Assembly (NCBI GenBank): GCA_019359235.1
Contig: JAHHHT010000012.1
Location: forward strand, 131,648-195,647
Origin: Oscillatoria princeps RMCB-10
Lineage (GTDB): Bacteria; Cyanobacteriota; Cyanobacteriia; Cyanobacteriales; Oscillatoriaceae
Reading direction: 5' to 3'
Length of the DNA stretch: 64,000 nt
Both the position numbers and the translations under genes were made by a program. Numbering within the stretch: position 1 is the stretch's first letter; every line of letters begins with the position of its first letter. This document shows, one piece after another, positions 17,163-53,304 of the stretch. The notes beneath the pieces were generated by a model. That model had not been told where the DNA came from, made no database searches, and was given only the letters and a program-made list of their open reading frames with translations.

Positions 17163-17167
17163 CCCCC

Positions 17168-18155: not shown

Positions 18156-18431
18156 ATGGAGAGAGCTATGGCAGACACCAGAGATTTTCTATCTCCTCGC
18201 AGTCGCTACCACGGCAAATTCACGCCGCAAAACTTGGCTTTTGATGCGAATCTGCAGGAGTTCGCTCAAAAAGTGAGCATCATCTGCGCCTTAGAAACCG
18301 GTGGCAAGCTCTCCTCAGAACAAGCCTACGAGGAAATTCGCACCCTCTGGCACCGGCTGAAAACATCGAAAAAACATCTGGGAATTGGCGAGCCACCCCC
18401 TGAGGCCAGCGAGGATAAAAGTGAAGGATGA
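18156..18431 (+). CDS. small conserved hypothetical protein
   Basis: Track ORF 18108..18431. The likely start is MERAMADTRDF. No domain recognised. Confidence 0.4.
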   Translation: MERAMADTRDFLSPRSRYHGKFTPQNLAFDANLQEFAQKVSIICALETGGKLSSEQAYEEIRTLWHRLKTSKKHLGIGEPPPEASEDKSEG

Positions 18432-18473
18432 GCGGAGAAGGGAGAAAGCAGAAAGTAGGGGCACCCACAAGGG

Positions 18474-19778: not shown

Positions 19779-19823
19779 GCCAAACAGCCAAAGGCTAAGA
19801 AATGGTGCTATTCTTAAATCGGG

Positions 19824-21422: not shown

Positions 21423-21843
21423 CCGGATGTAGCTCTGCTGTTTGATAGCTTACTGGCGTCGCACAAGTAGATGCGTTTGCCCCGTCTGGCCTCAAGCATG
21501 CTTTCCTCGCTGCCGCTCAGTTTATACCCTACCTTAAATGATTTAAGGGTATTAACGGGATGTCCTGGGGCTTCCCCCAGGTTGCTCAAGTGACTCGGCT
21601 TGTGTGGACAGGAGTTTCAGGACTGCCCGCACCGGCCACAGCACCGGCAGCCTGTCCCAGATTCTTTACTCTTACATTCAGGTATTCTTCCTATCTTTAA
21701 AGTTCCTCAAAAATGGAGGCAACCAACGGTCTGGGGAATTTCTTTACAAAATTTTTACATAATTGTGTTGATTGTGTGAAGGCGGAGCGCCGGTGGGGCC
21801 TTGTGCCGGCGGGCCAGAGGGCTGCGGCTGCGGGGGGTTATAC

Positions 21844-24250: not shown

Positions 24251-24970
24251 TCAGGCGATCGTCTCGACTTTACCACTATCTAAGTCGTAACGGGCCCCAA
24301 CGATTTTCAGCCTGCCCTCTTTGAGCAACTCAGTCAGGATGGGTTGAGAGGATTTTAATTGCTCCACAACCAGTTTGACATTGGCTTTGACGGCGTTGTC
24401 GAGCGGGTCGCCGGCTTGGCCTTTCGCCTTGGCCAGGGCGGGGTTGATGGCGGCCAGCAAGCTGCCAATGTGCCCGGGGACTGGCTTGCCTTCTAAGGCG
24501 GCTTTCACGGCACCGCATCCTTCATGGCCCAGCACCACAATCAGGGGGACGCCCAAATGCTCGGCGGCATATTCAATGCTGCCGAGTACCACGTCGTCGG
24601 TGATATTCCCAGCCACCCGGATGTCAAATATATCGCCGATTCCCTGGTCAAAAAGAATTTCCGCCGGCACCCGTGAGTCAGCGCAGCCAAGAACGATCGC
24701 AAACGGATGCTGGCCTTGGGCAACTTCTGCCAGACGCACCCGGTTCTGGTCGGGATAGGTTCGTTTTTCCTCAACAAACCGTTTATTGCCATCCATCAAT
24801 TTTTGCAGGGCTAGATCGGGGCTGGTGCCTGCAGGAGAATCCTCGTTTGTGGCGACACGTTGATGCCCAACCAGCTTGACTGCAAGCGCAGCCGCCAGGG
24901 CTCCCCCACCGGCAGCCGCGAGCATTTCCCGCCGGGAAAGCCGTCTCAAATGCTTTCTGTTGTCCATCAT
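24251..24970 (-). CDS. beta-class carbonic anhydrase with twin-arginine (Tat)-like signal (EcaB-like)
   Basis: Zinc-ligand motifs CADSRV and HEGCGAV. N-terminus RRLSRREMLAAAGGGALAAALA. Confidence 0.85.
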   Translation of the reverse strand: MMDNRKHLRRLSRREMLAAAGGGALAAALAVKLVGHQRVATNEDSPAGTSPDLALQKLMDGNKRFVEEKRTYPDQNRVRLAEVAQGQHPFAIVLGCADSRVPAEILFDQGIGDIFDIRVAGNITDDVVLGSIEYAAEHLGVPLIVVLGHEGCGAVKAALEGKPVPGHIGSLLAAINPALAKAKGQAGDPLDNAVKANVKLVVEQLKSSQPILTELLKEGRLKIVGARYDLDSGKVETIA

Positions 24971-25339
24971 TTGCTACCTTGCGCAAATGTTCAGTCAATA
25001 GGAGTTTAAACCTACTAGCTGGGAGGGAGCTGATTCTTAAGGTAGTCTTTGCAATTCGCTTTTCTGGGGATCTTCGCCCCAGTAGGTGCTGGCTTTATGC
25101 AATGTAGAATAAAAAACTGAGAGTGTTAAATATTATTTAACAAGTCTTTGTAAAAGTTTACATTTGGCGGTAGTAAGGTGAAGGGGGAAGGAAAGGGGGA
25201 GAGGTTCAATACAAAATTGAAATGCTTCCATGTCAGAGCGGGTCTATCCACATCTATTTTGCAGATTAATCGCTGTGGGGGCGGGCTCGCCAGCCGGTGC
25301 CACGCCCCCATAAAGAAAAGATTGCCAGGGATTTTTATG

Positions 25340-26830
25340 TCACTCGTTCATATTCCTGTAAGTTGCCACAGCAGAAGGCGAGATGCGACTCAGATAGCGG
25401 AATATCCAATACTTAAAGATGGTATCCAAAATCACCGGGAAAGTGGCAATAAACAAAAAGTTTAAGTCCCGACTTTCTGGCAGTCCAAGATGCCTGGATA
25501 TGCCTTCCAGAATCACTTCCCAGCCATGCGGTGAGTGGAACCCCACGAAAATATCTGTCAGCAGGATAATAATAAACGCTTTAGCGCTGTCGCTGAGGCC
25601 GTAAATAATCTCGTCCAGAAAAGATTTGAGAATGGCGATATCTCGCTTACTGTTGAAAACTACTGTGGCAAAAACAGCCGCCGAAATCAGGTCAGCAAAG
25701 ATATTTTTTAGGGCGCTATTACTTTCGGATCTGTACTCTTCAGCAATCTCTTCGGCTTTGTGTTTGACCCGCTCCTCTACCTCTTCTGCGGAAAGCTGAG
25801 GTGCCGCGCCTATTAACATTTTAAACTTCAGCTGCTCTTCAAACCGCGCCAAGTCTTCAAAAGCTTCTTTTTCCAAATCTTCGTTTATAAAAATCTCAGC
25901 TGAGCTTCCTTCTCGGAAGTGGTCAACTGCCGGCCCAACAAAGAAAGTTTTTGAGAGCTGCTGCGTCAGGAGGGGAATCAGGACAAGCAAGACAATAAAT
26001 CTCAGCGAAACAACTGTCTTATTTTTGGATTTGCGGAAGTTTTTAACAACTTCCTCTTCGGCTTTGGGGTCGAGGTCTTTTTTGAGTTTTTCAACAGTTC
26101 TCAAGATCGAGCGAGGCAAGAAACTGGTTTTATCAGAAATCGTTTCAGACATTTCTACCGAATCACCGACAGAATAAGGGGCGGGATTGTTTTTGACGAG
26201 GAGGCCAGATTTGAAAGGCTGTTCGCTCTGGCTGTAAGCCACCAATAAGGAGGGGGATGAGGGTGGATAAGTCACTGGCACTTCAGAAGTGTACTTAGCC
26301 AACACCCCATCAATAAACGTCAGCTTTTCTAAAGTAATAGAAGCTTTCTCTCTCAGGACTATATTGGTTGAATACTGAAAGGAATCGGAAGAAGCAATAG
26401 AAAATTCTTTCGGCTGGCCTAACTTGGTAGTGGCCAGAACTGAGCGGCTAATCTTGAAAGCGGACAAGTTGAGTCTAGCGATATTTAGGTACTTGGTTAA
26501 CTCCCCTTCAAAATACTGCATGACACTCTCACTATAGTGAGCTGTTTCTGCAGAAATTTTTTGGCTGTTAAAATGCTGGTCTTCGATTGATTTGATGGTC
26601 AGGGCTGCATTGTAAGCTTCCTCCAGGGATCTCTCCGGTGTCGCGGAAAACCACTTGTTGGCATCGCGGAAGTATCCTTGGAGGTTTTTGAACTGGGGTT
26701 TTTTCATGTCGCGGTTTGTCCTACTTAGGAATATAAGGCGTTGCAAGGGAGCCAAAGGAGCGAAGGCAGAGGGCGAAGAGGTAAGAGAAGAAGAGAGAGT
26801 GTTAGGGGGCGGTGACGACCTGTTTAGCAC
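25340..26830 (-). CDS. pxcA: PxcA/CemA-family proton-extrusion protein
   Basis: C-terminus LSDSAKAFIIILLTDIFVGFHSPHGWE...TFPVILDTIFKYWIFRYLSRISPSAVATYRNMNE is nearly identical to chloroplast CemA / cyanobacterial PxcA. Long N-terminal extension as in PxcA. Confidence 0.9.
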   Translation of the reverse strand: MLNRSSPPPNTLSSSLTSSPSAFAPLAPLQRLIFLSRTNRDMKKPQFKNLQGYFRDANKWFSATPERSLEEAYNAALTIKSIEDQHFNSQKISAETAHYSESVMQYFEGELTKYLNIARLNLSAFKISRSVLATTKLGQPKEFSIASSDSFQYSTNIVLREKASITLEKLTFIDGVLAKYTSEVPVTYPPSSPSLLVAYSQSEQPFKSGLLVKNNPAPYSVGDSVEMSETISDKTSFLPRSILRTVEKLKKDLDPKAEEEVVKNFRKSKNKTVVSLRFIVLLVLIPLLTQQLSKTFFVGPAVDHFREGSSAEIFINEDLEKEAFEDLARFEEQLKFKMLIGAAPQLSAEEVEERVKHKAEEIAEEYRSESNSALKNIFADLISAAVFATVVFNSKRDIAILKSFLDEIIYGLSDSAKAFIIILLTDIFVGFHSPHGWEVILEGISRHLGLPESRDLNFLFIATFPVILDTIFKYWIFRYLSRISPSAVATYRNMNE

Positions 26831-26861
26831 TACGATTTTCCCTTTTCTCTTAAGCGCTGTC

Positions 26862-27572
26862 TCAAGGAATCAGCTCTACTTGGCCGGTGGCTAAGTCGTA
26901 GCGAGCGCCAACAATTTTAACCTGGCCCATTTGCACCAAATCAGCCAGGATGGGTTGGGAAGATTTCAATTGCTCAACCACCATTGTAATGTTGGCTTTG
27001 ACTGCGTTGTCAAGGGCATCACCGGCTTTGCCTCTTGCCTTGTCCACGGCTGGTTTGATGGCATCGACAAAACTGAAAATGTGGCCCGGAACTGGGTTGC
27101 CTTCTAGCGCCGCCTTCACCGCACCGCATCGTTCGTGCCCCAGCACCATAATTAAGGACACACCCAATACCGCTGTGGCATATTCGATGCTGCCGAGAAT
27201 AGCGTCGTCCAGGATATTGCCCGCCACGCGAATCACAAACAAGTCCCCCAGTCCTTGGTCAAAGAGAATTTCCGGCGGAACTCGCGAATCCGCACAGCCC
27301 AGCAAGATCGCAAAAGGATGCTGACCTTTTGCAACCTCTGCGAGACGCATGGGCGTCTGGTCGGGATAGGTGCGTTTTTGCTCAACATACCGTTGATTCC
27401 CTTCTATCAGTTTGTGCAAAGCATCGTCACCCGTGAGTGGGGCGGCTTCTTGTGGTGTTGCTATTTCAGGAAGAACGAGTTCGTCACTCAGTTGATCTAC
27501 GAACCCACTGGCACCAGCCAGAGCCTTGAAATCGGCTTTAGATTTAACCTTTAACTGCTTTCGGTTTGCCAT
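26862..27572 (-). CDS. beta-class carbonic anhydrase, no signal peptide (paralogue of 24251..24970)
   Basis: CADSRV and HERCGAV motifs. About 70% identical to the Tat-signal copy over the catalytic domain. N-terminus MANRKQLKVKSKADFKALAGASGF is not signal-like. Confidence 0.85.
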   Translation of the reverse strand: MANRKQLKVKSKADFKALAGASGFVDQLSDELVLPEIATPQEAAPLTGDDALHKLIEGNQRYVEQKRTYPDQTPMRLAEVAKGQHPFAILLGCADSRVPPEILFDQGLGDLFVIRVAGNILDDAILGSIEYATAVLGVSLIMVLGHERCGAVKAALEGNPVPGHIFSFVDAIKPAVDKARGKAGDALDNAVKANITMVVEQLKSSQPILADLVQMGQVKIVGARYDLATGQVELIP

Positions 27573-27796
27573 CCTTTGCTGCGCGTTAAAATTTTGTTTG
27601 CCCTTGCTGCGATGGAATTTTTCCCAGGGTTTTTTCAGCCGAATCGAGCGGTATTCCGCAAAGTGGAGAGAAAGGGGGAAGCTTTTACGAACCTGTCAAA
27701 ACAGCCCCCGGGCTTTTGGTGGCTGCCCAGGGGCAGCCAGAGCGTGAGTTAAGTTGACGGGATCTAAGCTGAGGTTACCCCTGAAGCGAGAGCCGG

Positions 27797-28093
27797 TTAA
27801 TTGATGATCGACTGCACGTCAGAAAGCAGACACACACCGCCAAATTTTTTCAGTAAAGGTCTGATGATTTCCACAAATTCACTGGCTTGTTCTTCCGTGC
27901 AGATACTCATCACATACCCATTGCTGAACGCGCCGCCCATTTCTAAATCATTGGACACTATCCCTCGCTCGCCCTTGCCTGTAACCTCTCGAATGATGGT
28001 ATAGCCAGAAACGCCCACCTCTTCTAACGTTGACAGCACTTTGTCCAATTCCAATGATGTGATTATGATTTCTACCTTTTTCATCCGCTCCAC
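27797..28093 (-). CDS. sbtB: PII-like signalling protein SbtB
   Basis: 98-aa PII-fold-like protein, 4 bp downstream of sbtA. Lacks the CGPxGC redox tail. Confidence 0.75.
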   Translation of the reverse strand: MERMKKVEIIITSLELDKVLSTLEEVGVSGYTIIREVTGKGERGIVSNDLEMGGAFSNGYVMSICTEEQASEFVEIIRPLLKKFGGVCLLSDVQSIIN

Positions 28094-28097
28094 AGTG

Positions 28098-29135
28098 TCA
28101 CCCTCCCAGCGTTTTAATCATTTCCAGGTACACAGGAATTCCCACTATTATATTAAAGGGGAACGTGATGGCTAGAGCCATCGAAACGTAGAGACTTGGA
28201 TTGGCTTCGGGGACTGTCATCCGCATGGCTGCGGGAACCGCTATGTAAGATGCGCTCGCAGACAATACGGCAAACAAAAGAGAATTTCCCTCGGAAAGGC
28301 CCAGTAATTTTGCGATAACGATGCCGAGAAGAGCATTCAGCACGGGGATGAATACAGCAAAGCCAATCAGGAAAGAACCTGTTTTCTGAAGGTCTTTTAT
28401 CCTTCGTGCAGCGACCATTCCCATGTCCAGCAAAAAGAAAGTCAGGACTCCGTAAAATATTCCTTGGGTGAATGGCTGCATCTTCTCCCACCCTTTCCCC
28501 CCTGTCAGTGCCCCTATTAAGACGCTTCCAACCAAGAGAAAAACCGACCCATTCAGGAAAGCTTCTTTGAAAACTTCAGACCAAGAGAATTCAGAATCTT
28601 CTGTCTTTTTGCCAAAGATCCTGACTAGGAGAATGCCCACAATGATTGCCGGCGATTCCATGAGGGCCAGAGCGGCTACCATGTAGCCGTCAAAATGAAT
28701 GCTGAGTTTGTCCAGGAAAGAACTGGCACTGATAAAGGTGACGGCGCTGATTGACCCATAGGTGGCTGCAATAGCGGCAGCATTATAAGGGTCGAGTTTT
28801 ATTTTCAGGATGAAAAATGTGTAAACAGGTACAGCACAAGCCATGAGGATGGCTGCTGTGAGAGTTATTAAAATTTCCAGACTGATTCCACTCTCGTCAA
28901 GTTCATAGCCTCCCTTGAACCCTATAGCCAGAAGAAGATAAAGAGAGAAGAGTTTGGGCAAAGGCTGAGGGATTTCCAAGTCAGACTTAAGAAAAATCGC
29001 CGCCATGCCGAGAAAGAAGAAAAGAACCGGCGGGTTCAGAAAGTTGAACAGAATAAGGCTTGAATCCATGTAAGCTCCTAAGATTTGTAGCAAGAAACAC
29101 GGAAATAAATTGGCCAGATGAACAGAAGAACTCAC
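28098..29135 (-). CDS. sbtA: sodium-dependent bicarbonate transporter SbtA family (DUF897)
   Basis: Multi-TM protein. Motifs GGYELDESG and PEANPSLYVSMALAITFPFNIIVGIPVY match SbtA. The true start is probably MDSSLILFNF (29069). Confidence 0.8.
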   Translation of the reverse strand: MSSSVHLANLFPCFLLQILGAYMDSSLILFNFLNPPVLFFFLGMAAIFLKSDLEIPQPLPKLFSLYLLLAIGFKGGYELDESGISLEILITLTAAILMACAVPVYTFFILKIKLDPYNAAAIAATYGSISAVTFISASSFLDKLSIHFDGYMVAALALMESPAIIVGILLVRIFGKKTEDSEFSWSEVFKEAFLNGSVFLLVGSVLIGALTGGKGWEKMQPFTQGIFYGVLTFFLLDMGMVAARRIKDLQKTGSFLIGFAVFIPVLNALLGIVIAKLLGLSEGNSLLFAVLSASASYIAVPAAMRMTVPEANPSLYVSMALAITFPFNIIVGIPVYLEMIKTLGG

Positions 29136-30298: not shown

Positions 30299-30555
30299 GG
30301 AAGCCGGCGCAAAACACCGCCTCTGTCACAAGAAACCGTCACAGCCCTTCCGGATCGGGCTTGGGGAGTGGGGGCGGGGCGGGGGCGGGTTTGTCAAGCT
30401 CCTTCCCTGCGCCACAAATATGCTGTTAGGCTTTTAATCTGCTTGTTGGAGAAAGGAGGCAGTCGCAAAGGAACTGCGCACACCGCCACCAATGAAAACT
30501 GGCAAGGGCGGCGGACGATCCGGTAGGGCTAAAGCCCTACTACAAACCTGTTGCC

Positions 30556-31587
30556 TTAAGCCCGCGAAGCCCGCAATTGCCCGCAGGCGGCGTCAGCTTC
30601 CAAGCCGCGAGAATAGCGCACGCTCACAGCAACGCGGTGCTTCTTCAAGGCGGTGACAAAGGCTTCAATCCGCTCGCGGCTGGGGCGCTGGTAGTCAGCT
30701 TCGCTGATGGGATTGTAGGGAATCAGATTGACGTGACTCTGGAAACCCCGCACCAGAGCGGCGAGTTCTACTGCGTGTTGCGGGAGATCGCTCACACCGG
30801 CAAGCAGAATATATTCAAACGTCAGCCGGCGACCGGTTAGCTTGACATATTCCCGACATTCTGCTATTAACTCGTTTAAGGGATAAGCGCTGGCGCTGGG
30901 AATCAGCTTTTCCCGCAGCGCCTGATTGGAGGCGTGCAGGCTGACGGCTAGGGTGAATTGCAGTTTGTGTTGTGCCAGCTTGCGGATGCGATTGCGAATT
31001 CCCACCGTGGAAATGGTGATATTTCGCTGCCCAATTCCGATATCTTCGTTGATAGAGCGAACAGCTGCTAGAACACTTTCTGCATTGAGCAAAGGTTCGC
31101 CCATGCCCATGAAGACAATGTGGCTGACGCGCCGGCCAAAGTCTTCTTGAACCGTCAGCACCTGATCGACAATTTCATGGGCAGCCAGATTGCGCTTGAA
31201 GCCACCCTTGCCGGTGGCGCAGAAGTCGCACGCCATCGGGCAGCCAACCTGGGAAGACACGCACACCGTGAGGCGCTTGTCTGTGGGGATGCCGACGGTT
31301 TCCACAATCATACCATCTGCCAGCTTGAGGAGATATTTGACAGTGCCGTCTGGGGCAACTGAGCGGTAGTGTGTGGCTGACCGGCCAATAGGGACACCGG
31401 CCAGAGTTTCCCGCCACTGTTTGGGGAAAACGGTAATATCCGCCAGCGAGCGAGCGCCTTTTTCATAGATCCACTGGTACAGCTGCTGACCCCGGTAAGC
31501 CGGTTGCCCCTGCTGCTGCGCCCATTCGGTTAATTCTGCCAGAGTTGCCCCCAAGAGCGGGGTCGAAGATGTTTGAACTGCTAACAT
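30556..31587 (-). CDS. rlmN: 23S rRNA (adenine2503-C2)/tRNA methyltransferase RlmN, radical SAM
   Basis: [11 protein letters not shown] radical-SAM motif. GMGEPLLN. C-terminal catalytic Cys. Confidence 0.9.
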
Positions 31588-31658
31588 AGAAGTTTGCCGG
31601 CTAGTGCTTCATTTACATGATGGCATTTTCAGCCAAAAGCCGGTCAATTAACCCCACT

Positions 31659-34600
31659 TCAGACTTTCTTAACTGTTTGCCTAATGGGAATCTCAATCCA
31701 AAACTCCGCACCTTGTCCGGGCTCAGACACACACTTGAGCCGTCCGCCGTGCTTGTCGGCGACAATTTGATAGCTGATGGACAGTCCCAAGCCGGTGCCC
31801 TCACCCACAGGTTTAGTGGTGAAAAAGGGGTCAAATATCCGCAATCTTGCTGATTCGGGAATGCCTGGCCCATTGTCCTCGATCGCGATTGCCACCCAAT
31901 TATTCTCCACAGCCCGTTGGGTGCGAATGGTGATGGTACTGGGATTCTTTTTCAGCTCTTCTCGAGAGCGCTCCCTGTCGCGCTCCTGAAGAGCGTCAAT
32001 GGAATTGTTCAGGAGATTCATAAACACCTGATTCAGCTGGCCGGCATAGCACTCAACTTCTGGCAAATCGCCGTATTCCCTGACGATTTGAATGCCCGGC
32101 TGGTCTGGCTTAGCCTTGAGCCGGTTCTGCAAAATCAGCAGACTGCTCTCAATTCCCTCATGAATATTCACCGGCTTCATTTCCGCTTCGTCAAGCCGGG
32201 AGAAATTGCGCAGCGTCAGGACAATCTGGCGGATGCGCTCAGCCCCAACTTTCATCGAAGACAGCGTTTTGGGTAAATCCTCAACCAGGAAATCCAGTTC
32301 AATCTCTTCAATCAAGTCTTGAATTTCCGGGTCTGGGTTGGGATAGCGCTCCTGGTAGAGGTTGATTAAAGCCAGCAAGTCCTGAGCGTAGTCATCGGCG
32401 TGAGTGATGTTGCCATAGATAAAATTAACGGGGTTATTAATCTCGTGGGCGACACCGGCAACCAGCTGTCCGAGACTGGACATTTTCTCAGTCTGAATCA
32501 GTTGAGTTTGGGTTTGCTGGATCTGTTGCAGCGCTTGTTCCAGTTGCTTGGCTTGAGCCGCAGCCGCTTCAGCAGCAGACTGGCTCTGCTGGTAGAGCTC
32601 TGCTTGCTGAATGGCGATTGCAGCTTGGTTCGCTAATTGTTGCAATAGTTCAATTTCTGCCGGCTGCCAAACCCTGGGAGCAGAGCACTCGTGAGCGATC
32701 AGCAGCCCCCAGAGGAGATAATCGATGCGAACCGGCACGACAAGATTGGCTTGAATTCCCAGGTTCAGCAAAAACTTTTTGTGACAGGGATGCAAATCTG
32801 ACTCAGCGATGCTGTCAACCGCTTTCACTCGCCCGTAGCTGTAAAGGCGGGCGTACTCTGTCGGGAAGCACTCATCCGCATACACGTCTCCCTGAAGTAA
32901 TTTCCAGCGCCCATTTACCGCTTCCACCACCACTTCGCCTTGCCAGTCTCGCGTGAACTGGTAAATCACCACCCGATCAGTGTTAAGTAGGGCGAGGACT
33001 TCTCGCACGATAGTTTGCAGGATAGTCTTTAAATCTAAAGTCCTGCGGATTTGGTCTGTAATTTGTGTGAGAACCCGGTCAGATTCCACAGACTGCATCA
33101 ATTGCGCCTGAGCCTGCCGCAGTTCCTGAAGCGTTTTCTCTAATTCTAGAGCTTGCGCTGTGGCCGTAGCCGCCAGTTGCTCTTTAAGCTGCAATGCTTG
33201 CCAGAGTTCGGCTTCCGCTCGCACGCGCCCGGTGATGTCGCGCAGGATAGCAACATATTCTTGCTGCTTTCGATTCCTTCTGTGCGAGAGCGTTATTTCA
33301 ATGATGCGATCCGGGCTAAATGTCCGCTCGCTCCGCTTTGGCCATTGCTCAATATCCACCGGCAACTCAGAAAAGAAATGGTTCAGGCGACTCCCAATCA
33401 GTTGAGGGATGTCTGTGCGGAAAAGTGTTTCAGCCGCCCGGTTGGCTTGCTGGATCGCACCGCTTGCATCGAGCACGAGGACGGTATCCGGAACGGTGTC
33501 GAGGGCCGCAATAAACAGACTTTCAGCCCGCTCTCGCGCTTCGGCAATCGCCGCAACTTGGGGCAAGCTCGTCCAGCAGGCGATGGCGATGGCAACAAAG
33601 GCAATCGTTAGGAGAACAACGACCAGCAGATCGCTGCGGGGGGGTAGAGAGGATCTGTCTAATAGAGCTCTGAGAACCCAGCCTGCGGTGGCAGCGCTGC
33701 AGACCAATACAATCAGAACGACCACCTGCAGCACCAAAAAATCTTTGAACTTGCCGGTGGTTGGCGCAACTGTTCTCCGCACCCACCATGCTGGGTGGAA
33801 GGGTGGGAAGGAAATGCGGCGAATTGCGGCATCAAAAGCCAAAAAAGCGAGAGGGAAAAGCAGCCCTGCAGCTAAGTCTTGCCAGCTCCAGCCCAAGCCT
33901 ACCATGACTAGAAGTGTGGCATCGACTGCGAACAAGCCAAGGGACAGCCACCCCCACCGCACTTCTTGTGAGCGCCGGCGCAGCCAAAGTCCCAGATGAA
34001 ATGCCATCAGAGCTGCCATGTAGCCGGCACCGCTGATGGTGGCGAACCGGGTCACATCTCCCGAAACCAGAGCGAGCAGATTGATGCAAAGTCCGAGTGC
34101 GAGCGCCGGTTGCAGTGCGCCCTGTGGGGAGACAATCTGGAATAGGGGTGAAACGTATCCGTCTAGGGAGAGTTGGTACAAAATGCGCGGAGCGTTGGCA
34201 ACCGAAGTGGCGGCAATCAGCAGGCAGCTTGAGGCTAGCAGGAGGGTGACGGGCAGTGTGGCTGAGGTGCCCCAGAACGGTGCCGCAGCGGCTACTAGGT
34301 GGAAGTAGGGGTTGTCGCCCAGTCCGGGGGAGGTGGCTAGCCGCGCCAGCACCCAGGAGCTACCGAGAAACACCGGCGGAATTAGCCAGGCTACTGAGGA
34401 AAGAATTCGCAATGTTTCGCCCGGTTGCCTGCTGTCGGCGACAAAAGAAGAAGCCGTCTCGCAGGCGCAGGTGGTGTAAATCGCGAAGAAAAACCACTTC
34501 AGCCACTCACGAAAGGTTAAGGGCGGTAAACTGGTGGGGAAAAATCCGGGGCTGTCCGGAGAGAAGGCTAGCCAGCCCAAGCCTTGAATGCAAAACACCA

Positions 34601-35129
34601 GCAGGAATCCAACTGCCGGTAACATGAAAAAGGCGTGCAGGATGCCTAAGGTGCGGGTGCCGCTAAACGCTACAATATAAGCGATTGAGGCGAAGCCAAT
34701 TTTTAGAACCGTTTCGGGACAGTAGACGCCCCAGGGCTCCAGGTTGGCTTTGACGATATCTGTGAGGATGAAGGCGGTGGCTGACGGATAGGCTGCCCAG
34801 GCGAGGAAGTAGGCGATCGCTGCGTAGCGCCCCAGACTGGGATGGTCGCTCAGCAATCGGGTGATATAGTTTGGCGTTCCTCCTGACATCTCTGGCCACT
34901 GCTCCCCCAAGCGTTTCACTTGCAGGTTGAGCAGCACGCCGGCGATTACTGCCGGCAGCCACACGAAAATAGCACTTGCTCCCAGCGCCGCGTGGATTGC
35001 CGGTGCGGTGGTTACCCATCCCAGAAGGCCGGTGAGTCCGAATCCCCAGGTTTCCAGGGCGCTCAGGCTGCGGGGGAGGCGGATTGTCCCCGGCTGACTG
35101 CCCACACCCATTACAGGCTGACTAAGCAT
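31659..35129 (-). CDS. sensor histidine kinase: APC-permease-like 12-TM domain + PAS + GAF + HisKA + HATPase
   Basis: N-terminal membrane domain with TWGFGLTG and [14 protein letters not shown] (APC-like E...P..GG..Y). PAS, GAF, H-box [19 protein letters not shown]-boxes [11 protein letters not shown]. Confidence 0.8.
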
Positions 35130-35378
35130 TTTAACTTAATATGGATTAAAAGCTTGATTAGTAGCTACTTTATCTTTTTCTGCTGCAAGATATTTATAAT
35201 TTTCTAACAAAGTTGAGCGTGCCGCAGACAAAGGGCAGCGTTTTCTCCCCCGCTGCCGGCTGCGCAAATCACTGACGCGCCTGTAATGCAAGTGACAGCG
35301 CTGCGCCCCAATTTGGAGAGCGCACCTGTCCGACTCCCGCAGGCGAGTAACCCAGACCTGGATCTGCCCAACAGCCAA

Positions 35379-36743
35379 TTAACTCGCCTTCAGCGCTGCG
35401 CGATCGCTCTGCACGATGGGAATATCAATCACAAACTCTACCCCCTGTCCGGGTTCCGAGCAACACCTCAACTGCCCGCCGTGCTTTTGCACAACAATAT
35501 CATAGCTGATGAACAGTCCCAAGCCGGTGCCTTCACCCACCGGCTTAGTGGTGAAATCAGGAGGGGTAAACAGGTGTCCCATGACATCCATATCCAACCC
35601 CGGCCCATTATCTTTGATACTGATTCTCACCCAATCCAGGTTCAGAACTTGGGTGCGAACAGTAATAACACTGGGCTGGTTTTTAATCTCGTCTGGGGAG
35701 CGTTTATTATTGTGCGGGTTCAGGGCGTCAATCGCATGGCTGAGGATATTCATAAATACCTGATTCAAAGCTCCGGCATAGCATTCGACTGGCGGCAAAT
35801 CACCGTATTCTTTGACAATTTGAATAGCGGGGCGGTCTGGTTTTGCCTTGAGACGGTTTTGCAAAATCACTAGGGTGCTGTCGATGCCCTCATGAATGCT
35901 GACCTGCTTCATTTCGGCTTCGTCAACCCGCGAGAAGGTGCGCAACGTGATCACAATCTGGCGGATGCGCTCAGCTCCCACTTTCATAGAGGACAGCATT
36001 TTGGGGAGATCCTCTATGATAAAATCAAGGTCAGTGTCCTCAATTAAAGCTTGGATTTTAGGGTCAGGGTTGGGATAGCACTGCTGGTACAGGTCGATTA
36101 AATCCAGGAGCTCCTGAGTGTAGTCACCCACATAGGTGAGGTTGCCGTAGATAAAGTTAACCGGGTTGTTAATTTCGTGGGCGACACCGGCAACCAGCTG
36201 CCCTAAGCTGGACATTTTCTCGGCCTGAATCAGCTGAGCTTGGGTGCGCTGCAAATCTTGCAAAACTCGTTGCAGCTGAATCGCTTTTTCTCGCTCTCGC
36301 GCTTCCGATTGCCGCAACTCCTCCTCTTTTTCTTGCCGCAGGCGCAGGTTTTCTTTCAGCTGTCGCACGCACTGCAGGGTTTTGTTGATAGTAATTTCTA
36401 AATCCTGAAAATCGATGGGCTTAGTCAGGAAGTCAAAAGCCCCGCAGTTCATCGCCTTTCTGATATTTGCCATGTCGCTATAGGCGGAGACTACCACTGT
36501 TTTGATCAGCGGATCTATCTCATTCAGTTTAGCCAGCAAAGTCAAACCATCCATAACCGGCATATTCAGGTCGGTCAGCACCATGTCCAGGTCGGGGTTA
36601 TCTCGCACCTTTTCCAGCGCTTCTGCGCCATTCCGCGCAAAAACCAGCTCCAATTCGCCGGTGCGAATCTTTTTTCTATATTTTTGGGAAATCAGAACTT
36701 CTAAATCCGGCTCGTCATCCACAAAGAGTATTTTAGCCGCCAC
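35379..36743 (-). CDS. hybrid response-regulator/histidine kinase (N-terminal REC + HisKA + HATPase)
   Basis: REC domain [13 protein letters not shown]...[10 protein letters not shown]-box [22 protein letters not shown]. Kinase core about 75% identical to that of 31659..35129. Confidence 0.85.
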
Positions 36744-36884
36744 AGCCCGCCTCCTGTTTTCTATTTTATTAAAAAGTTAGCCGATCGGCGGGCCATTTAA
36801 ACCCGTAAAACTACCGAAGTTTTATGAATAATTCCGAACTGAACGGGACGAGCGAGGCCCGAAAAAGTCGGCGTATATTGGGGG

Positions 36885-37253
36885 CTACAAACTGAATATT
36901 TTTTGTTTCAGGCCCAAAAAGTTAACCGGCTTGGTAATATAGTCATCAGCCCCCAAAGCCATTGCTGTTTGGTAGTTTTGAGGGTCTTCGTAAGCGGTAA
37001 TCATAAAGATTTTTAAACTGGCGAACTCTTTTTTAATGATTTTGAGAAGTTCTAGCCCATTCATTCCCGGCATGTTAATGTCGGAGAGAATCAGCACAGC
37101 GGACGCTTCTCCCCGCTCGTGCAGGTAGTCTAGCGCCGCCTCCGCCGATAAGAAGAAAATAAATTCTACTTGACCGGCTTTGATTTCCTTTCTAAATCTT
37201 TGCTTGAACAGGAGTTGCATATCTTCCTCGTCGTCAACCACTATGACTTTCAT
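36885..37253 (-). CDS. single-domain CheY-like response regulator
   Basis: 122 aa. MKVIVVDDEED...DINMPGMNGLELL...ITKP. Confidence 0.85.
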   Translation of the reverse strand: MKVIVVDDEEDMQLLFKQRFRKEIKAGQVEFIFFLSAEAALDYLHERGEASAVLILSDINMPGMNGLELLKIIKKEFASLKIFMITAYEDPQNYQTAMALGADDYITKPVNFLGLKQKIFSL

Positions 37254-37355
37254 TTATTTCTCCCTCATATCGAGTTGAAATTGACAGGATTTTTACCGGA
37301 CAGCGAAAACTCCTGTCCGGAGAAAAAATCCACAATCCAAAATCCAAAATTCGGA

Positions 37356-40283
37356 TCACTCACGGGCTTGCTTTTTTGGTAAGATGATAATAAACTCTGC
37401 ATAACTGCCAGCTTCCGTTTCCACATTGAGTTCTCCTCTGTGCTGCTGCACGACAATATCGTGACTGATAGACAGACCCAAACCCGTCCCTTCTCCGGCT
37501 GGCTTTGTAGTAAAAAAGGGAGTGAAAAGTTTATCGCGCACCTCTGGCGTCATACCGGAGCCATTATCGCGAATGCGGATTTCAACGCGATCGCCCAGAT
37601 TTTTAGTCCGCACGCTCAGGAGCGGGGAAAATCCACCGCCCATTTCTTCTTTCCTTTTATGGGCTGCATAGCAAGCGTTGTTGATAATGTTCAGAAAAAC
37701 TCGGCCCATGTCTTGCGGGACGACTTCTACAGAGCCAATAGACTCGTCACAGCCGGTTTCTATGGTAATATTAAAGGAAGCCTCCTTGGCCCGCATCCCG
37801 TGATAGGCGAGATTGACATACTCCGCCAATAAACTGTTGATATCCGTCGCCTCCCACTGACCGCTTTTTCCGCGAGAGTGCAGCAGCATATTGCTGACGA
37901 TCCTGTCCGCTCTTTGACCGTGATGGTTGATTTTTTGCAGATTTTGTTTCAGGTCGTTTAAAATGTCGGCGATCAACTCACTTGTTTCGGTATCTAGCCG
38001 GTCGGCTTGATTTTCAATTTCTTCAAACAGTTCTTGGGCTAATTCAGCGGAAAGCTCGGAGAAATTGTTAACAAAGTTTAAGGGGTTCCTGATTTCGTGG
38101 GCGATGCCAGCTGTCAAACTTCCCAGAGAAGCCAGCTTTTCTTGCACGATAATCTGGTTTTGCATGGCTCGCAGATTCTCTTCGACCCGCCGGCGCTCTG
38201 TTATCTCCACCTGCAACTGCTCGACAGTCTGCCTGAGTTCAGATGTGCGCTCCTCAACTTTGATTTCTAGCTGCTCGTTAGCTTTTTGCAGCGCCTCCTG
38301 GGCTCGCACGCGCTCGGTAATGTCCCGCAGAATCACAACATATTCTTGCAGATCCCGATTGGTTTCCGAAGCGTTTTGGGAGAATCGGTCTGAGATGGCA
38401 ACTTCCAGGACAAGCGGATTTGACCCGTGCGGGTTGAGGGTTTGCTCGCACCGGCCCGGCCACTCATCGGGTTGATTTGCCAGTCCGGGCAGCAGTTGGT
38501 TCAGGTGACGCCCGGCCAGCTGGCCGGCGCTCACCCCGAAAAGGCGCTCAGCTGCAGGGTTAACCTGACGAATCATGCCATTTTCATCGAGTACGGCAAT
38601 CGCATCCAAGGCGATCTTAAATAGCTGCTCAGCCGCCTCTCGCGCTTCGTCCATCGAGACAACCTGAGGCAAGCTCGTCCAGCAGGCGATCGCCACCCCG
38701 ACAAATGCCACACCATGAATCAGCACCAGCAATAAATTATAGTTAACGCTGGGGACCGCATTGAATTTGAGGCCCAAAACCCAGCCGGCAGTAACGGCGC
38801 TGCAGACCAGCAAGATCAGAACTGTCACCTGAAGGGCCACAAAATCTTCTATCGGTTTCTTGGGCCTTTGCCGGTAGCCCTGAATCCACCAAGCTGCATG
38901 AAAGGGCGCAAAGGGAAGGCGGCGCATCGCCGCATCCGCCGCCAAAATAGCGAGGGGAAACAGGAACCCTGTGAGAAAGTTTTTCCAGCCCCAAGCAAAG
39001 CCCCCAACGAACAGGACAGCCACCTCCACCAAAAAGAAGCCCAAGGACAGCCAAGGCCACCGCACCTCTGGCCTGCCCCGGCGCAGCCACAGTCCCAAAT
39101 GGAGGGCCATGAAAGACACCAGCCAGCAAGTATTGGTTATTGCCACGATTTGCGAGACATTTCCCCAAATCAGACAGATCAGATTCAGGCACAAGGTAAA
39201 CACCAGGGCCGGTCCGAGTACGCCCCGTCGCGACACAACGGCGAACACGGATGACAGGTGTCCGTCAAGGCTGAGTTGGTACAAAATGCGGGGGCAATTG
39301 GAAACTGCGGTGGCGCAACTGAGAAGGAAACTGGCAGAGAGCAGGAATGTGACAGTTGAGGAAGCTGACTTGCCCCAGAACGGTTTAGAGGCTGCTAGCA
39401 GATTTAAGAACGTGTCCTCCCCCAGTCCAGGCTCGGTAGCTAAACGCATCAGCACCCAAGATCCGCCGAGAAACACCGGCGGAATCAGCCAAGCGGCAAC
39501 AGTCAGAAAGCGCAGGGTTTCAGCAGGGCGTTTGCTGTCGCCGACAAACGAGGAAGCGGTTTCGCCAGCGTAGGTAGCGTAGGTAACAAAGAAAAACCAC
39601 TTGGCCCACTCCACAAAGGTGAGAGGCGATGAACTGCTGGGAAAAAAGCCCGGGCTAGATGGGGAGAAAGCTAACCAGCCCAAACCTTGCAGGCAAAACA
39701 GCAGCAGGAGTCCGAACGCCGGGATGACGAAACATAAATGCAGGATGCTCAAAGCGCGGGTGCCGCTAAACGCCACAATAAAGACGACTGCCACAAAGCC
39801 AATTTTCATCAGCGTATCGGGACAGGCGACACCCAAAGGCTCCAGGTTCCTCTGAATCAGCTTGGTCAGGATGATGGCGGCCACCGGCACATTCGATATC
39901 CAGCTAATGTAATATCCCAGAGCCGCATAGCGGGCAAGCCCTGGAGAGCTCTTCAGCAACCGCGCGGCATAGTTGGGCGTTCCCCCGGCCATTTCGGGCC
40001 AATTTTCGCCCAGGCGTTTCACTTGCAGGTTTAGCAAGATGCCGACGATCGCCCCAGGCAACCAGACGAATACGGCATTAGGCCCAAGAGCGGCGTGGAT
40101 CGCTGGAGCGATACTGGGCCATATAACGTGACCGGTTAGACCAAAGCCCCAGGTTTCCAGGGGAGTGAGGGTTCGCTGCAGGCGCATCAGCGACCTCTCC
40201 TTGAGATTCCTGCCCGGGAAAGGTTGAGACTGTTGTGAGTGGGAGCCGGCTGCCGGCTCGTGTCGGGTTTCTGGCACCATCAC
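37356..40283 (-). CDS. sensor histidine kinase: APC-permease-like membrane domain + PAS + HisKA + HATPase (paralogue of 31659..35129)
   Basis: [10 protein letters not shown]...GENWPEMAGGTPNY in the N-terminal membrane domain. H-box [24 protein letters not shown]. The start is probably MRLQRTL. Confidence 0.8.
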   Translation of the reverse strand: MMVPETRHEPAAGSHSQQSQPFPGRNLKERSLMRLQRTLTPLETWGFGLTGHVIWPSIAPAIHAALGPNAVFVWLPGAIVGILLNLQVKRLGENWPEMAGGTPNYAARLLKSSPGLARYAALGYYISWISNVPVAAIILTKLIQRNLEPLGVACPDTLMKIGFVAVVFIVAFSGTRALSILHLCFVIPAFGLLLLFCLQGLGWLAFSPSSPGFFPSSSSPLTFVEWAKWFFFVTYATYAGETASSFVGDSKRPAETLRFLTVAAWLIPPVFLGGSWVLMRLATEPGLGEDTFLNLLAASKPFWGKSASSTVTFLLSASFLLSCATAVSNCPRILYQLSLDGHLSSVFAVVSRRGVLGPALVFTLCLNLICLIWGNVSQIVAITNTCWLVSFMALHLGLWLRRGRPEVRWPWLSLGFFLVEVAVLFVGGFAWGWKNFLTGFLFPLAILAADAAMRRLPFAPFHAAWWIQGYRQRPKKPIEDFVALQVTVLILLVCSAVTAGWVLGLKFNAVPSVNYNLLLVLIHGVAFVGVAIACWTSLPQVVSMDEAREAAEQLFKIALDAIAVLDENGMIRQVNPAAERLFGVSAGQLAGRHLNQLLPGLANQPDEWPGRCEQTLNPHGSNPLVLEVAISDRFSQNASETNRDLQEYVVILRDITERVRAQEALQKANEQLEIKVEERTSELRQTVEQLQVEITERRRVEENLRAMQNQIIVQEKLASLGSLTAGIAHEIRNPLNFVNNFSELSAELAQELFEEIENQADRLDTETSELIADILNDLKQNLQKINHHGQRADRIVSNMLLHSRGKSGQWEATDINSLLAEYVNLAYHGMRAKEASFNITIETGCDESIGSVEVVPQDMGRVFLNIINNACYAAHKRKEEMGGGFSPLLSVRTKNLGDRVEIRIRDNGSGMTPEVRDKLFTPFFTTKPAGEGTGLGLSISHDIVVQQHRGELNVETEAGSYAEFIIILPKKQARE

Positions 40284-40542
40284 TTTTATATCCCGTGTTC
40301 AGTGGTTCGCAGCTCGCACCCAGGCGGGGAAACAGACGGCTTCAACCTCTCAAGGGTTAAGATGCCGGTTGCTGTTAGCATCTGCTCTCTGGCACAGGCG
40401 GGACGCTTGTGCGGTTCGGTGGCAGCGTCAGGATTCATTTTTGAGGTTTAGAATTCCCTCTCGCTGTTTCCTGCGTAACAGTTCAATCCCTATTTTGGCT
40501 GCCGGCACAACTTTAAAAAAAAAATTAACATTTTTTTAGCAT

Positions 40543-40780
40543 GTCTTCTTCTCGTTTGAACAACAAACTTAATAATGGGCATTAGCCCAACTACAAACCG
40601 AGCCCCGAGAGCTGGCCATATCCCCGCTCTTTGGATTGCAAAAGGGCCGGCCTGCGGGCTTGTCTTCTTCTCGTTTGAGCAACAAACTTAATAATGGGCT
40701 AAAGCCCAACTACAAACAGCTTGTCTTCTTCTCGTTTGAGCAACAAACTTAATAATGGGCTAAAGCCCAACTACAAACGG
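40543..40780. repeat. three copies of a 58-bp direct repeat upstream of lgt (copies 2 and 3 abutting)
   Basis: tgtcttcttctcgtttga(a/g)caacaaacttaataatgggc(at/ta)agcccaactacaaac at 40543-40600, 40662-40720 and 40722-40780. Confidence 0.8.
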
Positions 40781-40891
40781 CACGACGGCAGCAGCCAGCC
40801 GGTAAACTGTGAGAAGCTAGCCGCTTTTGTTGCCCCATCCGCGATTCGCCGGGAGCGCACGCGCACCCGAAGCCGTTTAAAATCAACATTT

Positions 40892-41791
40892 ATGGATATT
40901 CCCACCCTACCGTTAGCGTTTCAATTCGCCTCCCCAGGGCCAATAATCTTCAACCTGGGGCCACTGGTCATCCGCTGGTATGGCCTCTTGATTGCCTCAG
41001 CGGTGCTGCTTGGCATCACCCTTTCCCAGTACCTGGCGTCCCGCCGGCACCTGAAGCCAGAACTGCTGGGCGACTTGGCCATCTGGCTAGTCTTGGCCGC
41101 CATTCCTTGCGCCCGAATCTACTATGTGCTGTTTCAGTGGGCCGACTACGCCAAAAACCCGGGCGACATCATTGCGATTTGGAAAGGCGGCATTGCCATT
41201 CACGGTGCCATTCTCGGCGGCACCGCCGCCACCTTAATATTTGCCCGCATCCAGAAAATTGCCTTCTGGCAATTAGCAGATTTAGTCGCCCCCTCCGTGA
41301 TTTTGGGTCAAGCCATTGGCCGGTGGGGAAATTTCTTCAATTCAGAAGCCTTTGGGGGTCCCACGAATCTGCCGTGGAAACTCTATATCCCCCCCAGCAA
41401 CCGCCCCCTTGAGTACATCAATTTCGACTACTTCCATCCCACTTTTCTCTACGAATCCCTGTGGGATTTGATGGTGTTTGGCTTGCTGCTCGCCCTATTC
41501 TTTCGCGATTTGAAGGGGAAGCTGCGCCTGAAAACCGGCACCTTGTTTCTAGTTTACATGGCGGCTTACAGCTCAGGTCGATTTTGGATTGAAGGATTGA
41601 GAACCGACAGCTTGATGCTCGGGCCGCTGCGCATGGCCCAGACGGTCAGCCTAGCCGGCATTGTTTTGGGGTTAGCCGGTTTGGTGTGGCTTTACCTCCT
41701 CCACCGGCCTCTGCCAGATGTTGTCCCAGCCGACCGGCAGCAGCAGGATTATCGCTCCGAGTCTGCCGGTCCGCCCAACAATTCTCCGTAA
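40892..41791 (+). CDS. lgt: prolipoprotein diacylglyceryl transferase
   Basis: Lgt motifs [27 protein letters not shown]. Track ORF start 40721 only translates the upstream repeat; the in-frame ATG at 40892 ([10 protein letters not shown]) fits the Lgt N-terminus. Confidence 0.85.
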
Positions 41792-41869: not shown

Positions 41870-42640
41870 CTAGGCTACTTGTGGGCGCAACAGCGAAACC
41901 AATTGCTCAATCCCCTTTTGAATCCGCCGCGTCACCGTCATCGGGCTGACGCCAATCCTCTCAGCTACTTCCTTGCGGGAGATATCATTCAAAAACACAA
42001 ACTCAATCACTTCTCGGGTTTTTTCTTCCAGCTGGCCCAAAGCCCCTTGCAGTTGCTGGCGTTCCTCTTCAGCGTTTTGCAGCGCTTGGTAGTGCGCGTC
42101 GAGCAAAGTATCTCCCAGCGTCACCGGCATGTCCACTTGCAGGCCAATCGTGGCATCCAGACTCAGGGGGGTAGAATTTTGGGTGGCCAACTGGCTTTCC
42201 CGCCACTCTTCCACAGATACCCCCAGCTTCCGGGCGATTTCAGCCTCGCTGGGAGAGTAACCGAGAGACGCTGTTAATCGCTCTCGAACTTTCTGGCCTT
42301 CTTTTTGCAACTCTTGCCAGCGGCGCGGAATTCTCACCGGATTGCCCTTATCGCGCAAGAAGTGCAGCATCTCGCCGCGAATGTAAGGAACGGCAAAGGA
42401 GCTAAAGGCGCATCCCTGGCTGGGGTCGAAGCGCTCAATGGCGCGTATCAAGCCGAGATAGCCGATTTGTTCCAGGTCTTCGTAAGGTTCAGCGCACTGG
42501 TGGCTGACTCTGTGAGCAATCTTGCGCACCAAGCCTGCATTCAAGCGCACGAGCTGATTGCGAACTTCGACAGAGCGGTTGTGGTGATAGGAAACCAGCA
42601 GCTCCATACCACGGGAGCGGACAGAGGATTGAATTGCCAT
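41870..42640 (-). CDS. group-3 sigma factor (SigF/SigB-type)
   Basis: 256 aa. Region 2 YLGLIRAIERFDP...FSSFAVPYIRGEM. Region 4 LNDISRKEVAERIGVSPMTVTR. Confidence 0.85.
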   Translation of the reverse strand: MAIQSSVRSRGMELLVSYHHNRSVEVRNQLVRLNAGLVRKIAHRVSHQCAEPYEDLEQIGYLGLIRAIERFDPSQGCAFSSFAVPYIRGEMLHFLRDKGNPVRIPRRWQELQKEGQKVRERLTASLGYSPSEAEIARKLGVSVEEWRESQLATQNSTPLSLDATIGLQVDMPVTLGDTLLDAHYQALQNAEEERQQLQGALGQLEEKTREVIEFVFLNDISRKEVAERIGVSPMTVTRRIQKGIEQLVSLLRPQVA

Positions 42641-52544: not shown

Positions 52545-52602
52545 GGGGGGTGGGGATTGGAACCGCCAAGACGCGCCTGTTCGCCAAGAAAGAAAAAGGA
52601 GA

Positions 52603-53304
52603 TTATTTAGGCGGATTTGGGAGGAGGCGATATCCAAGTCCGTAGACTGTTTCAATGATATCCTCACGCCCTATTTCGGCAAGTTTGCGCCGCAGCAGGC
52701 GCATCTGTGCCGCTACGACGTTGCTGGCGGGTTCTGCGCCCAACTCCCAGAGTTGGTTGAGCAGTTGGTCGCGGGTGACAATTTGGTTGGGGTGCCGCAT
52801 GAAATATTCGAGAAGCTGGTATTCTTTGTTGGTGAGGGAAATCAGTTGTTGGTTGCCGGTGGGGTGTTGAAAAGAAAGGGTGCGGGTGCTGTAATCCAGG
52901 GTGAGGTTGCCGGCGTGCAGTTGCTGGGGTTGAATTTGGGGCGACCGGCGCTGCAGTGCTCGCAATCGGGCTAGCAATTCTGCCATGCCAAAGGGTTTGA
53001 CGAGATAGTCATCGGCACCGGCATCTAAGCCTGCAACTTTATCTTGCATGCTGTCTTTTGCGGTGAGCATCAGCACCGGCAGCGGGTTGCGCTTTGCTCG
53101 CAGGCGCTTGCACAGTTCCAGTCCGGACAGTTTGGGCAGCAGCCAGTCGAAGATGGCCAGGGTGTATTCCGTCCACTGGCTGTCTAAATAGTACCAGGCT
53201 TCCAGACCATCTTGCGCCCAGTCTACTATGTAGGCTTCTTGAGTTAGGGTGCGCTTGATGGCGGCACCCAAATCTGGCTCGTCTTCAACTAGCAGGACTC
53301 TCAT
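52603..53304 (-). CDS. OmpR-family response regulator (CopR/RppA-like)
   Basis: REC MRVLLVEDEPDL...FDWLLPKLSGLEL. Winged-helix C-terminus VYGLGYRL. Confidence 0.85.
   Translation of the reverse strand: MRVLLVEDEPDLGAAIKRTLTQEAYIVDWAQDGLEAWYYLDSQWTEYTLAIFDWLLPKLSGLELCKRLRAKRNPLPVLMLTAKDSMQDKVAGLDAGADDYLVKPFGMAELLARLRALQRRSPQIQPQQLHAGNLTLDYSTRTLSFQHPTGNQQLISLTNKEYQLLEYFMRHPNQIVTRDQLLNQLWELGAEPASNVVAAQMRLLRRKLAEIGREDIIETVYGLGYRLLPNPPK

Follow-up and report, generated by a model that had tools for sequence, protein, structure and literature searches.

A putative signalling island built around transporter-like sensor kinases between lgt and rlmN of Oscillatoria princeps

Genes of the lgt-rlmN interval

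We analysed a 64,000-nucleotide stretch of the Oscillatoria princeps RMCB-10 genome (contig JAHHHT010000012.1, positions 131,648 to 195,647; hereafter the window), in which a cluster of four signalling genes lies between rlmN (30556..31587) and the divergently transcribed lgt gene. A check of the open reading frames (ORFs) found the four genes at 31659..40283, all on the minus strand, where an initial annotation made from the sequence alone had placed them. In order of transcription they encode HK2, an APC-type sensor histidine kinase (HK) with a membrane region, PAS, HisKA and HATPase (37356..40283, 975 aa from a GTG codon); a CheY-like single-domain receiver of 122 aa (36885..37253; REC only, PF00072 at E=5.7e-23); an LvrB-like REC-HK hybrid of 454 aa with REC, HisKA and HATPase and without a sensor domain (35379..36743); and HK1, a second APC-type kinase of 1156 aa (31659..35129), in which 14 transmembrane (TM) helices are followed by PAS (residues 541-632), a GAF of the DXCF cyanobacteriochrome type (residues 699-840), HisKA and HATPase. 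The interval is probably a variable signalling island organised around a transporter-derived sensor module that HK1 and HK2 have in common. The automatic labels at NCBI are 'amino acid permease' for HK2, 'GAF domain-containing protein' for HK1 and 'response regulator' for the hybrid.

HK2 has two candidate starts, the GTG at 40283 and an ATG at 40187 that gives a protein of 943 aa. The latter is preceded by an AAGGAG Shine-Dalgarno-like sequence and is the version recorded at NCBI, and it is the probable true start. Scans of the cluster for promoters and terminators found sites no more frequent than in shuffled sequence, so they do not resolve the operon structure.

The two large kinases are paralogs, as the initial annotation had it, with 52% identity over 729 aa. 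Conservation between them falls from 58% in the APC domain (about 540 aa) to 43% in PAS and 32% in the kinase core. Pfam bears out the predicted PAS/GAF-HisKA-HATPase architecture, finding PAS, GAF, HisKA and HATPase in HK1 and PAS, HisKA and HATPase in HK2. The cytoplasmic part of HK2 (PAS, DHp and CA, 37371..38630; Pfam and NCBIfam) has an AtoS/NtrB-like core with its H-box histidine in 'AHEIRNP' (38082..38102), and the DHp and CA domains of HK1 (31680..32492; Pfam), whose core is of the type found in the hybrid, have theirs in 'AHEINNP' (32430..32450). Both kinases have a complete set of H-box histidine and N, G1, F and G2 boxes. Both receivers likewise carry the acidic pocket, phospho-acceptor Asp, Thr/Ser and Lys, in the motifs VDDE, SDINMP, ITAY and ITKP of the CheY-like protein and VDDE, TDLNMP, VSAY and LTKP of the hybrid.

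The APC-type membrane module

The N-terminal domains of HK1 and HK2 are transporter-like and belong to the APC family, as was initially proposed. The N-terminus of HK2 matches the Pfam family AA_permease (PF00324) at E=1.3e-6, with 27.8 bits against a cutoff of 24.6 and over profile positions 10-362 of 470. The APC-type trimethylamine N-oxide (TMAO) permease model of NCBIfam is matched by HK2 at E=7.5e-11 and by HK1 at E=7e-6, with both scores far short of the model's cutoff. A search of PDB sequences with the HK2 membrane domain as a single sequence (phmmer) found no match, so profiles and fold comparison were needed. An AlphaFold model of HK2 residues 33-555, built with 57 homologs as input, has a mean predicted local distance difference test score (pLDDT) of 86.5 and a predicted template-modelling score (pTM) of 0.86, and shows a complete 5+5 LeuT fold. 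Its top PDB matches by Foldseek are LAT1, y+LAT1, AdiC, KimA, LysP, ApcT, GkApcT and BasC (probability 1.0, TM-score 0.6-0.76, identity 14-18%), and the 50 fold matches listed comprise only APC-type and cation-chloride carriers and no SLC5/SSS protein. The family profile reaches ApcT (E=3.6e-4) and LysP (E=0.006), and hhalign aligns the family with AdiC and the nearest stand-alone permeases at 100% probability and E=7.8e-48. The competing possibility, that these regions belong to another TM sensor family such as MASE or 7TMR-DISM, found no match in a Pfam scan at E up to 10, which returned AA_permease only for HK2 and nothing relevant for HK1. Pfam likewise gave no SSF match for either membrane domain.

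The initial annotation described a 12-TM domain of about 440 aa. The 12-TM core (about 425 aa) is indeed present, but hydropathy and the model give the whole membrane region 14 TM helices and about 510-540 aa, in the order 12-TM core (modelled with high confidence), amphipathic helix, TM13-14 hairpin and a helix leading into PAS. In HK2 the core lies at 38913..40175, and the TM13-TM14 hairpin with its juxtamembrane junction at 38619..38861 (model helices 447-475, 479-504 and 506-522; junction '[11 protein letters not shown]' at 38664..38687); in HK1 core, hairpin and junction together span 33510..35072, assigned from the TMAO-permease model and homology to HK2. The motifs first noticed are all there: 'ETWGFG' in TM1 (HK2 aa 43-48, 40140..40157; HK1 aa 26-31, 35037..35054) and 'GGTPNY' (HK2 aa 100-105, 39969..39986; HK1 aa 83-88, 34866..34883). 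TM6 reads 'AGETASS' in HK2 (39549..39569) and 'ACETASS' in HK1 (34446..34466), and the HK1 junction includes 'ACWTSLPQ' (33558..33581).

Alignment of the family with AdiC suggests that the canonical APC central site is retained. In unwound TM1, family residues G14-F15-G16 align with AdiC G25-S26-G27; in TM3 the invariant Y92 aligns with Y93; and in TM6, where the family has 'Y..Y.(C/G)ETASS', Y203, Y206 and E209 align with W202, I205 and E208. 'GGTPNY' corresponds to the APC 'P..GG..Y' motif of intracellular loop 1 (IL1), where LysP has 'SGSFCTY', and the intracellular-loop motif after TM8 is also kept (family form 'PRILYQL..DG'). Three features set the fused proteins apart: the TM1a glutamate E11 (part of 'ETWGFG'), the TM13-14 hairpin and a near-invariant junction with the consensus '(A/S/C/G)W(T/I)(S/T)(L/I)PQ..A..EAR'. 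All three occur in every fused member, including divergent ones with 26-40% identity, and all three are missing from the nearest stand-alone permeases (23-30% identical). In every aligned cyanobacterial member PAS follows directly after the junction, whatever the final output domain. The module thus has four parts, the 12-TM APC core, the TM13-14 hairpin peculiar to the family, the near-invariant juxtamembrane helix and PAS.

Among 5.8 billion proteins searched, cyanobacterial homologs at 52-65% identity number in the hundreds, most of them APC-(PAS)-HK proteins of about 820-890 aa and others with SpoIIE, GGDEF or PAS only. An exhaustive search of 1.84 billion cluster representatives (50% identity) gave 238 clusters at E<=0.001, whose full-length members are mostly 640-1589 aa long. 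Other architectures in the family have GGDEF-EAL or hybrid HK-REC-REC-Hpt outputs; some divergent members are non-cyanobacterial, for example from Oligoflexus. Above about 30% identity the full-length hits are longer than the module, save a few module-only proteins (P0152, P0169) that retain TM13-14. Stand-alone permeases of 437-490 aa appear only at 23-30% identity and cover the 12-TM core alone. A survey limited to a single genome for each species found relatives encoded at 479 sites, and the best 79 of these loci, which were inspected, are all cyanobacterial or on unclassified contigs from metagenome-assembled genomes (MAGs), the closest being Oscillatoria sp. PCC 10802 (92%). The domain combination had been called rare, and this holds globally in that there are only 238 clusters, but in filamentous cyanobacteria it is common. 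Since output domains of several unrelated kinds are attached to this one module, the transceptor-type input envisaged at the outset, that is a receptor or transceptor role, is the most reasonable reading.

Two of the other arrangements may be recorded here. In Limnofasciculus baicalensis (L082, 6001..9884) an APC-SpoIIE member comes first, then a DUF6272 protein and a 114-aa ORF, an arrangement that looks like a partner-switching module. A 1485-aa gene resembling nonribosomal peptide synthetases (adenylation, methyltransferase, carrier and reductase domains) ends 10 bp upstream of a PCC 7509-type APC-PAS-HK gene at L081 (1534..5991) and L086 (525..4991), with a partial match at L052 (about 6183..7712). 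As a clue to the ligand this neighbour was rejected, being found at one of the 79 scanned loci and at two loci from a look-up, and so not general.

Partner genes and the photoreceptor domain of HK1

Among the 79 loci compared for synteny, 20 encode a member with an HK2-type C-terminus and 59 a member with another C-terminus. An ortholog of the CheY-like protein is present at 16 of the 20 and one or two REC-HK hybrids at 17, whereas neither occurs at any of the 59; HK2, CheY and hybrid therefore form a conserved unit. Among the HK2-type loci that lack partners are L003 and L015, which have short flanks, and L005 (Microcoleus sp. N3A4), a tandem array. The latter (10001..21568) has four HK2-type APC-kinase genes in tandem, of which the last is truncated where the locus ends; a short kinase-core fragment was detected after the third gene, but neither a CheY gene nor a complete REC-HK hybrid gene.

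HK1 is a variable add-on beside this unit. The lgt-rlmN interval holds HK2-CheY-hybrid-HK1 in the window, HK2-CheY-hybrid without HK1 in Oscillatoria sp. PCC 10802, and HK2-hybrid in Oscillatoria sp. Prado101. In Coleofasciculus sp. H7-2 it holds an HK1 ortholog that aligns to HK1 aa 11-680 and 881-1154 and lacks the GAF (L009), so the photoreceptor domain is an insertion/deletion polymorphism at this locus. A shorter HK1 ortholog occupies the same interval on a MAG contig (JBLNEP010000110.1, L083), to which we return below.

The GAF of HK1 (32604..33035) is of the phytochrome class and, by its motifs, a predicted blue/green light-sensing cyanobacteriochrome domain of the DXCF type, for which bilin binding and photoconversion are predicted. 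It matches PPHK (6oap, E=2.9e-41), TePixJ (3vv4, E=6.4e-30), AnPixJ, RcaE and others in the PDB (phmmer). Its 'DECF' (aa 752-755, 32865..32876) aligns column for column with 'DPCF' of TePixJ, and its 'HPCH' (aa 780-783, 32781..32792), the canonical bilin-attachment Cys-His, aligns with 'TECH' of TePixJ and PPHK. With both defining cysteines in place, HK1 is predicted to be a dual chemical and light sensor. For its GAF-HK half, the full-length proteins most closely related (72-73% identity) have a PAS-GAF-HK architecture, measure about 740-750 aa and start at the TM13-14 hairpin, and 97 of the 120 closest GAF-HK homologs have D-x-C-F/I at the DXCF position. A motif search among 289 family proteins found the APC module together with a phytochrome-class GAF only in HK1 and P0146.

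Several features of the surrounding DNA may be noted in their own right. The divergent lgt/HK2 intergenic region contains a perfect 61-bp tandem duplication (40658..40778), with a third, diverged copy near 40543..40600. The mechanically called TTG start of the Lgt ORF (40721) falls inside this duplication, so lgt itself probably starts further downstream. A gene for a group-3 (SigF-like) sigma factor (41870..42640, minus strand) adjoins lgt, and the order sigma factor-lgt-HK2 is also kept in Oscillatoria PCC 10802 and Prado101. An inorganic-carbon-related cluster (24251..29135, minus strand) comprises two paralogous beta-carbonic anhydrases flanking a CemA/PxcA-family gene, then an Sbt_1 bicarbonate-transporter-family gene; a 101-aa ORF directly upstream of the Sbt_1 gene has no Pfam match. 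Further histidine-kinase and receiver homologs, found as weak tblastn matches of the cluster's domains, lie at about 51216..53304 (minus strand).

A proposed mechanism and its alternatives

Transporter-fused sensor kinases are already known. The SLC5/STAC kinases CbrA, CrbS/MxtR and RpuS have been described (PMC7918813, PMC9100948, PMC13022988), a 'sensor kinase-MFS fusion' family is listed in TCDB (PMC3924187), and a 2026 preprint terms CbrA 'a rare transceptor' (PMC13022988). HK1 and HK2 resemble the CbrA group in that an N-terminal LeuT-fold transporter domain is fused to PAS-DHp-CA, and in that ligand binding or transport in the membrane domain is proposed to control the kinase. They differ in that the membrane domain is of the APC family (TC 2.A.3-like) and not SSS/SLC5; in that Pfam finds no STAC, the interval being filled by the TM13-14 hairpin and conserved junction helix; and in that the family is mainly cyanobacterial and its module also feeds GGDEF/EAL and SpoIIE.

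APC-family proteins also act as sensors without covalent fusion, as do E. coli LysP with CadC and Bacillus GerAB. In these, and in yeast Ssy1 and Gap1, the ligand occupancy of an APC-fold protein is the signal, as it would be in HK1 and HK2; those proteins signal through separate partners, whereas HK1 and HK2 carry the output domain in the same polypeptide. Yeast Ssy1 is a receptor that arose from transporters of amino acids (PMC12958826). For HK1 as a two-input kinase, the nearest described analogue is Synechocystis Etr1/UirS/PixA (slr1212; PMC6508509), which also unites an N-terminal membrane chemosensory domain and a cyanobacteriochrome/phytochrome-like GAF in one histidine kinase, but there the membrane domain is a small ethylene-binding one and in HK1 it is a 14-TM transporter-like domain followed by PAS. 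PPHK (6oap; PMC11480761), a 'dual sensor histidine kinase' of REC-cyanobacteriochrome GAF-HK architecture and the closest solved relative of the HK1 GAF, also combines a second input with the GAF upstream of the kinase; its second input is a receiver and not an APC module, and it has no Cys at the DXCF position of HK1. The hybrid, assigned from Pfam, ortholog comparison and synteny, has as its closest solved relative Leptospira LvrB (8vc9; NCBIfam NF047466), likewise REC-DHp-CA without a sensor domain. As with LvrA/LvrB, it stands beside a sensor kinase that could phosphorylate it; unlike LvrB, it scores 130 against a family cutoff of 500 bits, and its partner kinase is unrelated. Full-text searches of an incomplete library found no description of an APC-family-histidine kinase fusion, of the TM13-14/junction element or of an APC-cyanobacteriochrome combination.

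We propose that a small solute would bind the canonical central site formed by unwound TM1 ('ETWGFG') and TM6, and that occupancy of this site, or the transport cycle, would switch the core between conformations. By way of TM12-14 and the junction helix, the shift would reach PAS and DHp and so set the kinase/phosphatase balance. Phosphorylated HK2 might then phosphorylate the CheY-like protein, the REC domain of the hybrid or both, and the hybrid might relay or branch the signal to a downstream regulator. HK1, the second and older paralog, would combine two inputs, the membrane signal and blue/green light, within a single polypeptide. To this explanation as a whole, a variable signalling island around a transporter-derived sensor module including its wiring and the light input of HK1, we assign a probability of about 0.7. 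Its support comes from the retention of the site, the clade-specific coupling element, the reuse of the module with unrelated outputs and the synteny statistics. As to the solute, our best guess is a cationic amine or organocation and not a standard alpha-amino acid, on account of the likeness to TMAO permease, the new acidic residue and the aromatic-rich site; the TMAO permease model is the best match both for the domain itself and for the nearest stand-alone relatives, followed by ethanolamine permease and basic amino acid/polyamine antiporter models, and these matches are the sole pointer to the ligand. A comparison of 30400..41000 with all of Rfam for a riboswitch gave one sub-threshold chance match only.

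A number of observations weigh against this explanation. The Pfam comparison of the N-terminal domains placed HK2 in AA_permease, but the membrane domain of HK1 by itself has no Pfam match. The TM13-14 helices, which would couple the core to the kinase, are modelled at low confidence (pLDDT 52-67). In the hybrid the His-box is intact, but His336 replaces the Mg-ATP-binding Asn of the N-box (35724..35750, '[10 protein letters not shown]', including 'LSHAIDA'), and the F-box (35544..35570) is altered to 'FTPPDFTTK'. The REC-HK hybrids of related loci, where the motif search matched, have 'LSNAIDA/LSNAIYA' in 20 of 27 and 'F[DNES]PFFTTK' in 25 of 27, and the same hybrid sequence is present in a second assembly. 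The window's hybrid may accordingly be inactive as a kinase here, its role being that of a phosphatase or phospho-sink alone. No gene of the cluster codes for a DNA-binding or other output regulator, and the window neighbours (lgt, rlmN, the group-3 sigma factor and the inorganic-carbon cluster) offer no metabolic link to a ligand. Finally, the HK1 ortholog at L083 (5001..7256; 62% identity over HK1 aa 426-1154) starts at about HK1 residue 426 and keeps TM13-14, junction, PAS, DXCF GAF and kinase, but the 12-TM core is absent, and the locus has neither space for it nor a remnant of it. This natural deletion variant means that the cytoplasmic half can exist without the APC input.

As a tentative proposal, the 14-TM unit with PAS would be a previously undescribed, portable cyanobacterial receptor that detects an amine or organocation, extracellular or membrane-permeant, but does not transport it, and in HK1 this input would be combined with a blue/green switch. 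Also possible, though we would not expect it, is a transporting transceptor like CbrA, in which the APC domains are active permeases and the kinase responds to substrate flux or to substrate that has reached the cytoplasm and, for instance, binds to PAS. Such transport would fit the complete 5+5 LeuT fold of the model, the retention of the TM1 G-x-G, the TM6 Glu, the IL1 'GG..Y' and the post-TM8 loop motif, and the transport of histidine by the SLC5 domain of CbrA (PMC7918813; PMC13022988). On the other hand, no stand-alone 12-TM member is found among matches above about 30% identity, the substrate site has clade-specific changes (Ser to Phe in the G-S-G loop and the new Glu in TM1a), and transport is not something that sequence alone can show. 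We slightly favour a receptor that carries out little or no net transport, and this preference is weak because CbrA, the best-studied analogue, does transport its ligand (PMC7918813).

It is unlikely that the APC domain is a scaffold only, a membrane anchor or dimerisation platform for kinases whose real inputs are PAS and, in HK1, the cyanobacteriochrome GAF. The L083 truncation keeps this reading alive at low probability, and the PAS that follows the junction in all cyanobacterial members examined is compatible with it. However, conservation between the paralogs is highest in the APC domain, which across the aligned cyanobacterial members is 53-65% identical to that of HK2, its invariant residues align with ligand-binding and gating positions of AdiC in TM1, TM3 and TM6, and an anchor needs neither a conserved 12-TM fold nor a buried Glu.

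More doubtful again is a reversed coupling, in which the cytoplasmic PAS, GAF and kinase would regulate the permease, as in light- or phosphorylation-gated uptake. C-terminal cytoplasmic domains do regulate other carriers of the APC superfamily, and the fold matches include c-di-AMP-bound KimA as well as cation-chloride cotransporters; but the same module is joined, besides kinases, to the classical outputs GGDEF/EAL and SpoIIE, and the conserved partners of HK2 are receivers.

The last question concerns the origin of the HK1 kinase core, for which the initial annotation gave about 75% identity to that of the hybrid; the figure is 70% over 272 aa, 69.6% when the 315-aa core is taken and 64% across 328 aa. 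A recent duplication within the locus, as then suggested, would suit two adjacent genes with cores this similar, but it is very improbable and was rejected by a neighbour-joining tree of kinase cores, in which HK1 is placed with the APC-HK that Coleofasciculus carries in its lgt-rlmN interval (72%) and the hybrid with its PCC 10802 ortholog (84%), while HK1 resembles hybrids of other genera (66-72%) as much as it does its own neighbour and PCC 10802 has the hybrid and no HK1. Given this grouping, the resemblance is best read as an old paralogy within a common cyanobacterial core type, one that predates these genera.

Transporter-kinase transceptors are regarded as rare, and mechanistic work on them has centred on CbrA and CrbS. 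On the explanation favoured here, the APC module would mark a second recruitment of a LeuT-fold lineage as a signalling input, independent of the first, and where those kinases have STAC it has a coupling element of its own, the TM13-14 hairpin and junction helix. Hundreds of cyanobacterial genomes contain it, joined to kinases, c-di-GMP enzymes and partner-switching phosphatases, and the family offers natural contrasts in orthologs with and without the APC core or the photoreceptor GAF and in paralogs with different kinase cores. HK1 is a compact candidate for the integration of a membrane chemical signal with light, and possibly a scaffold for engineered two-input sensors; if its predicted inputs are real, it would be the first dual sensor to combine a transporter fold with a bilin photoreceptor.

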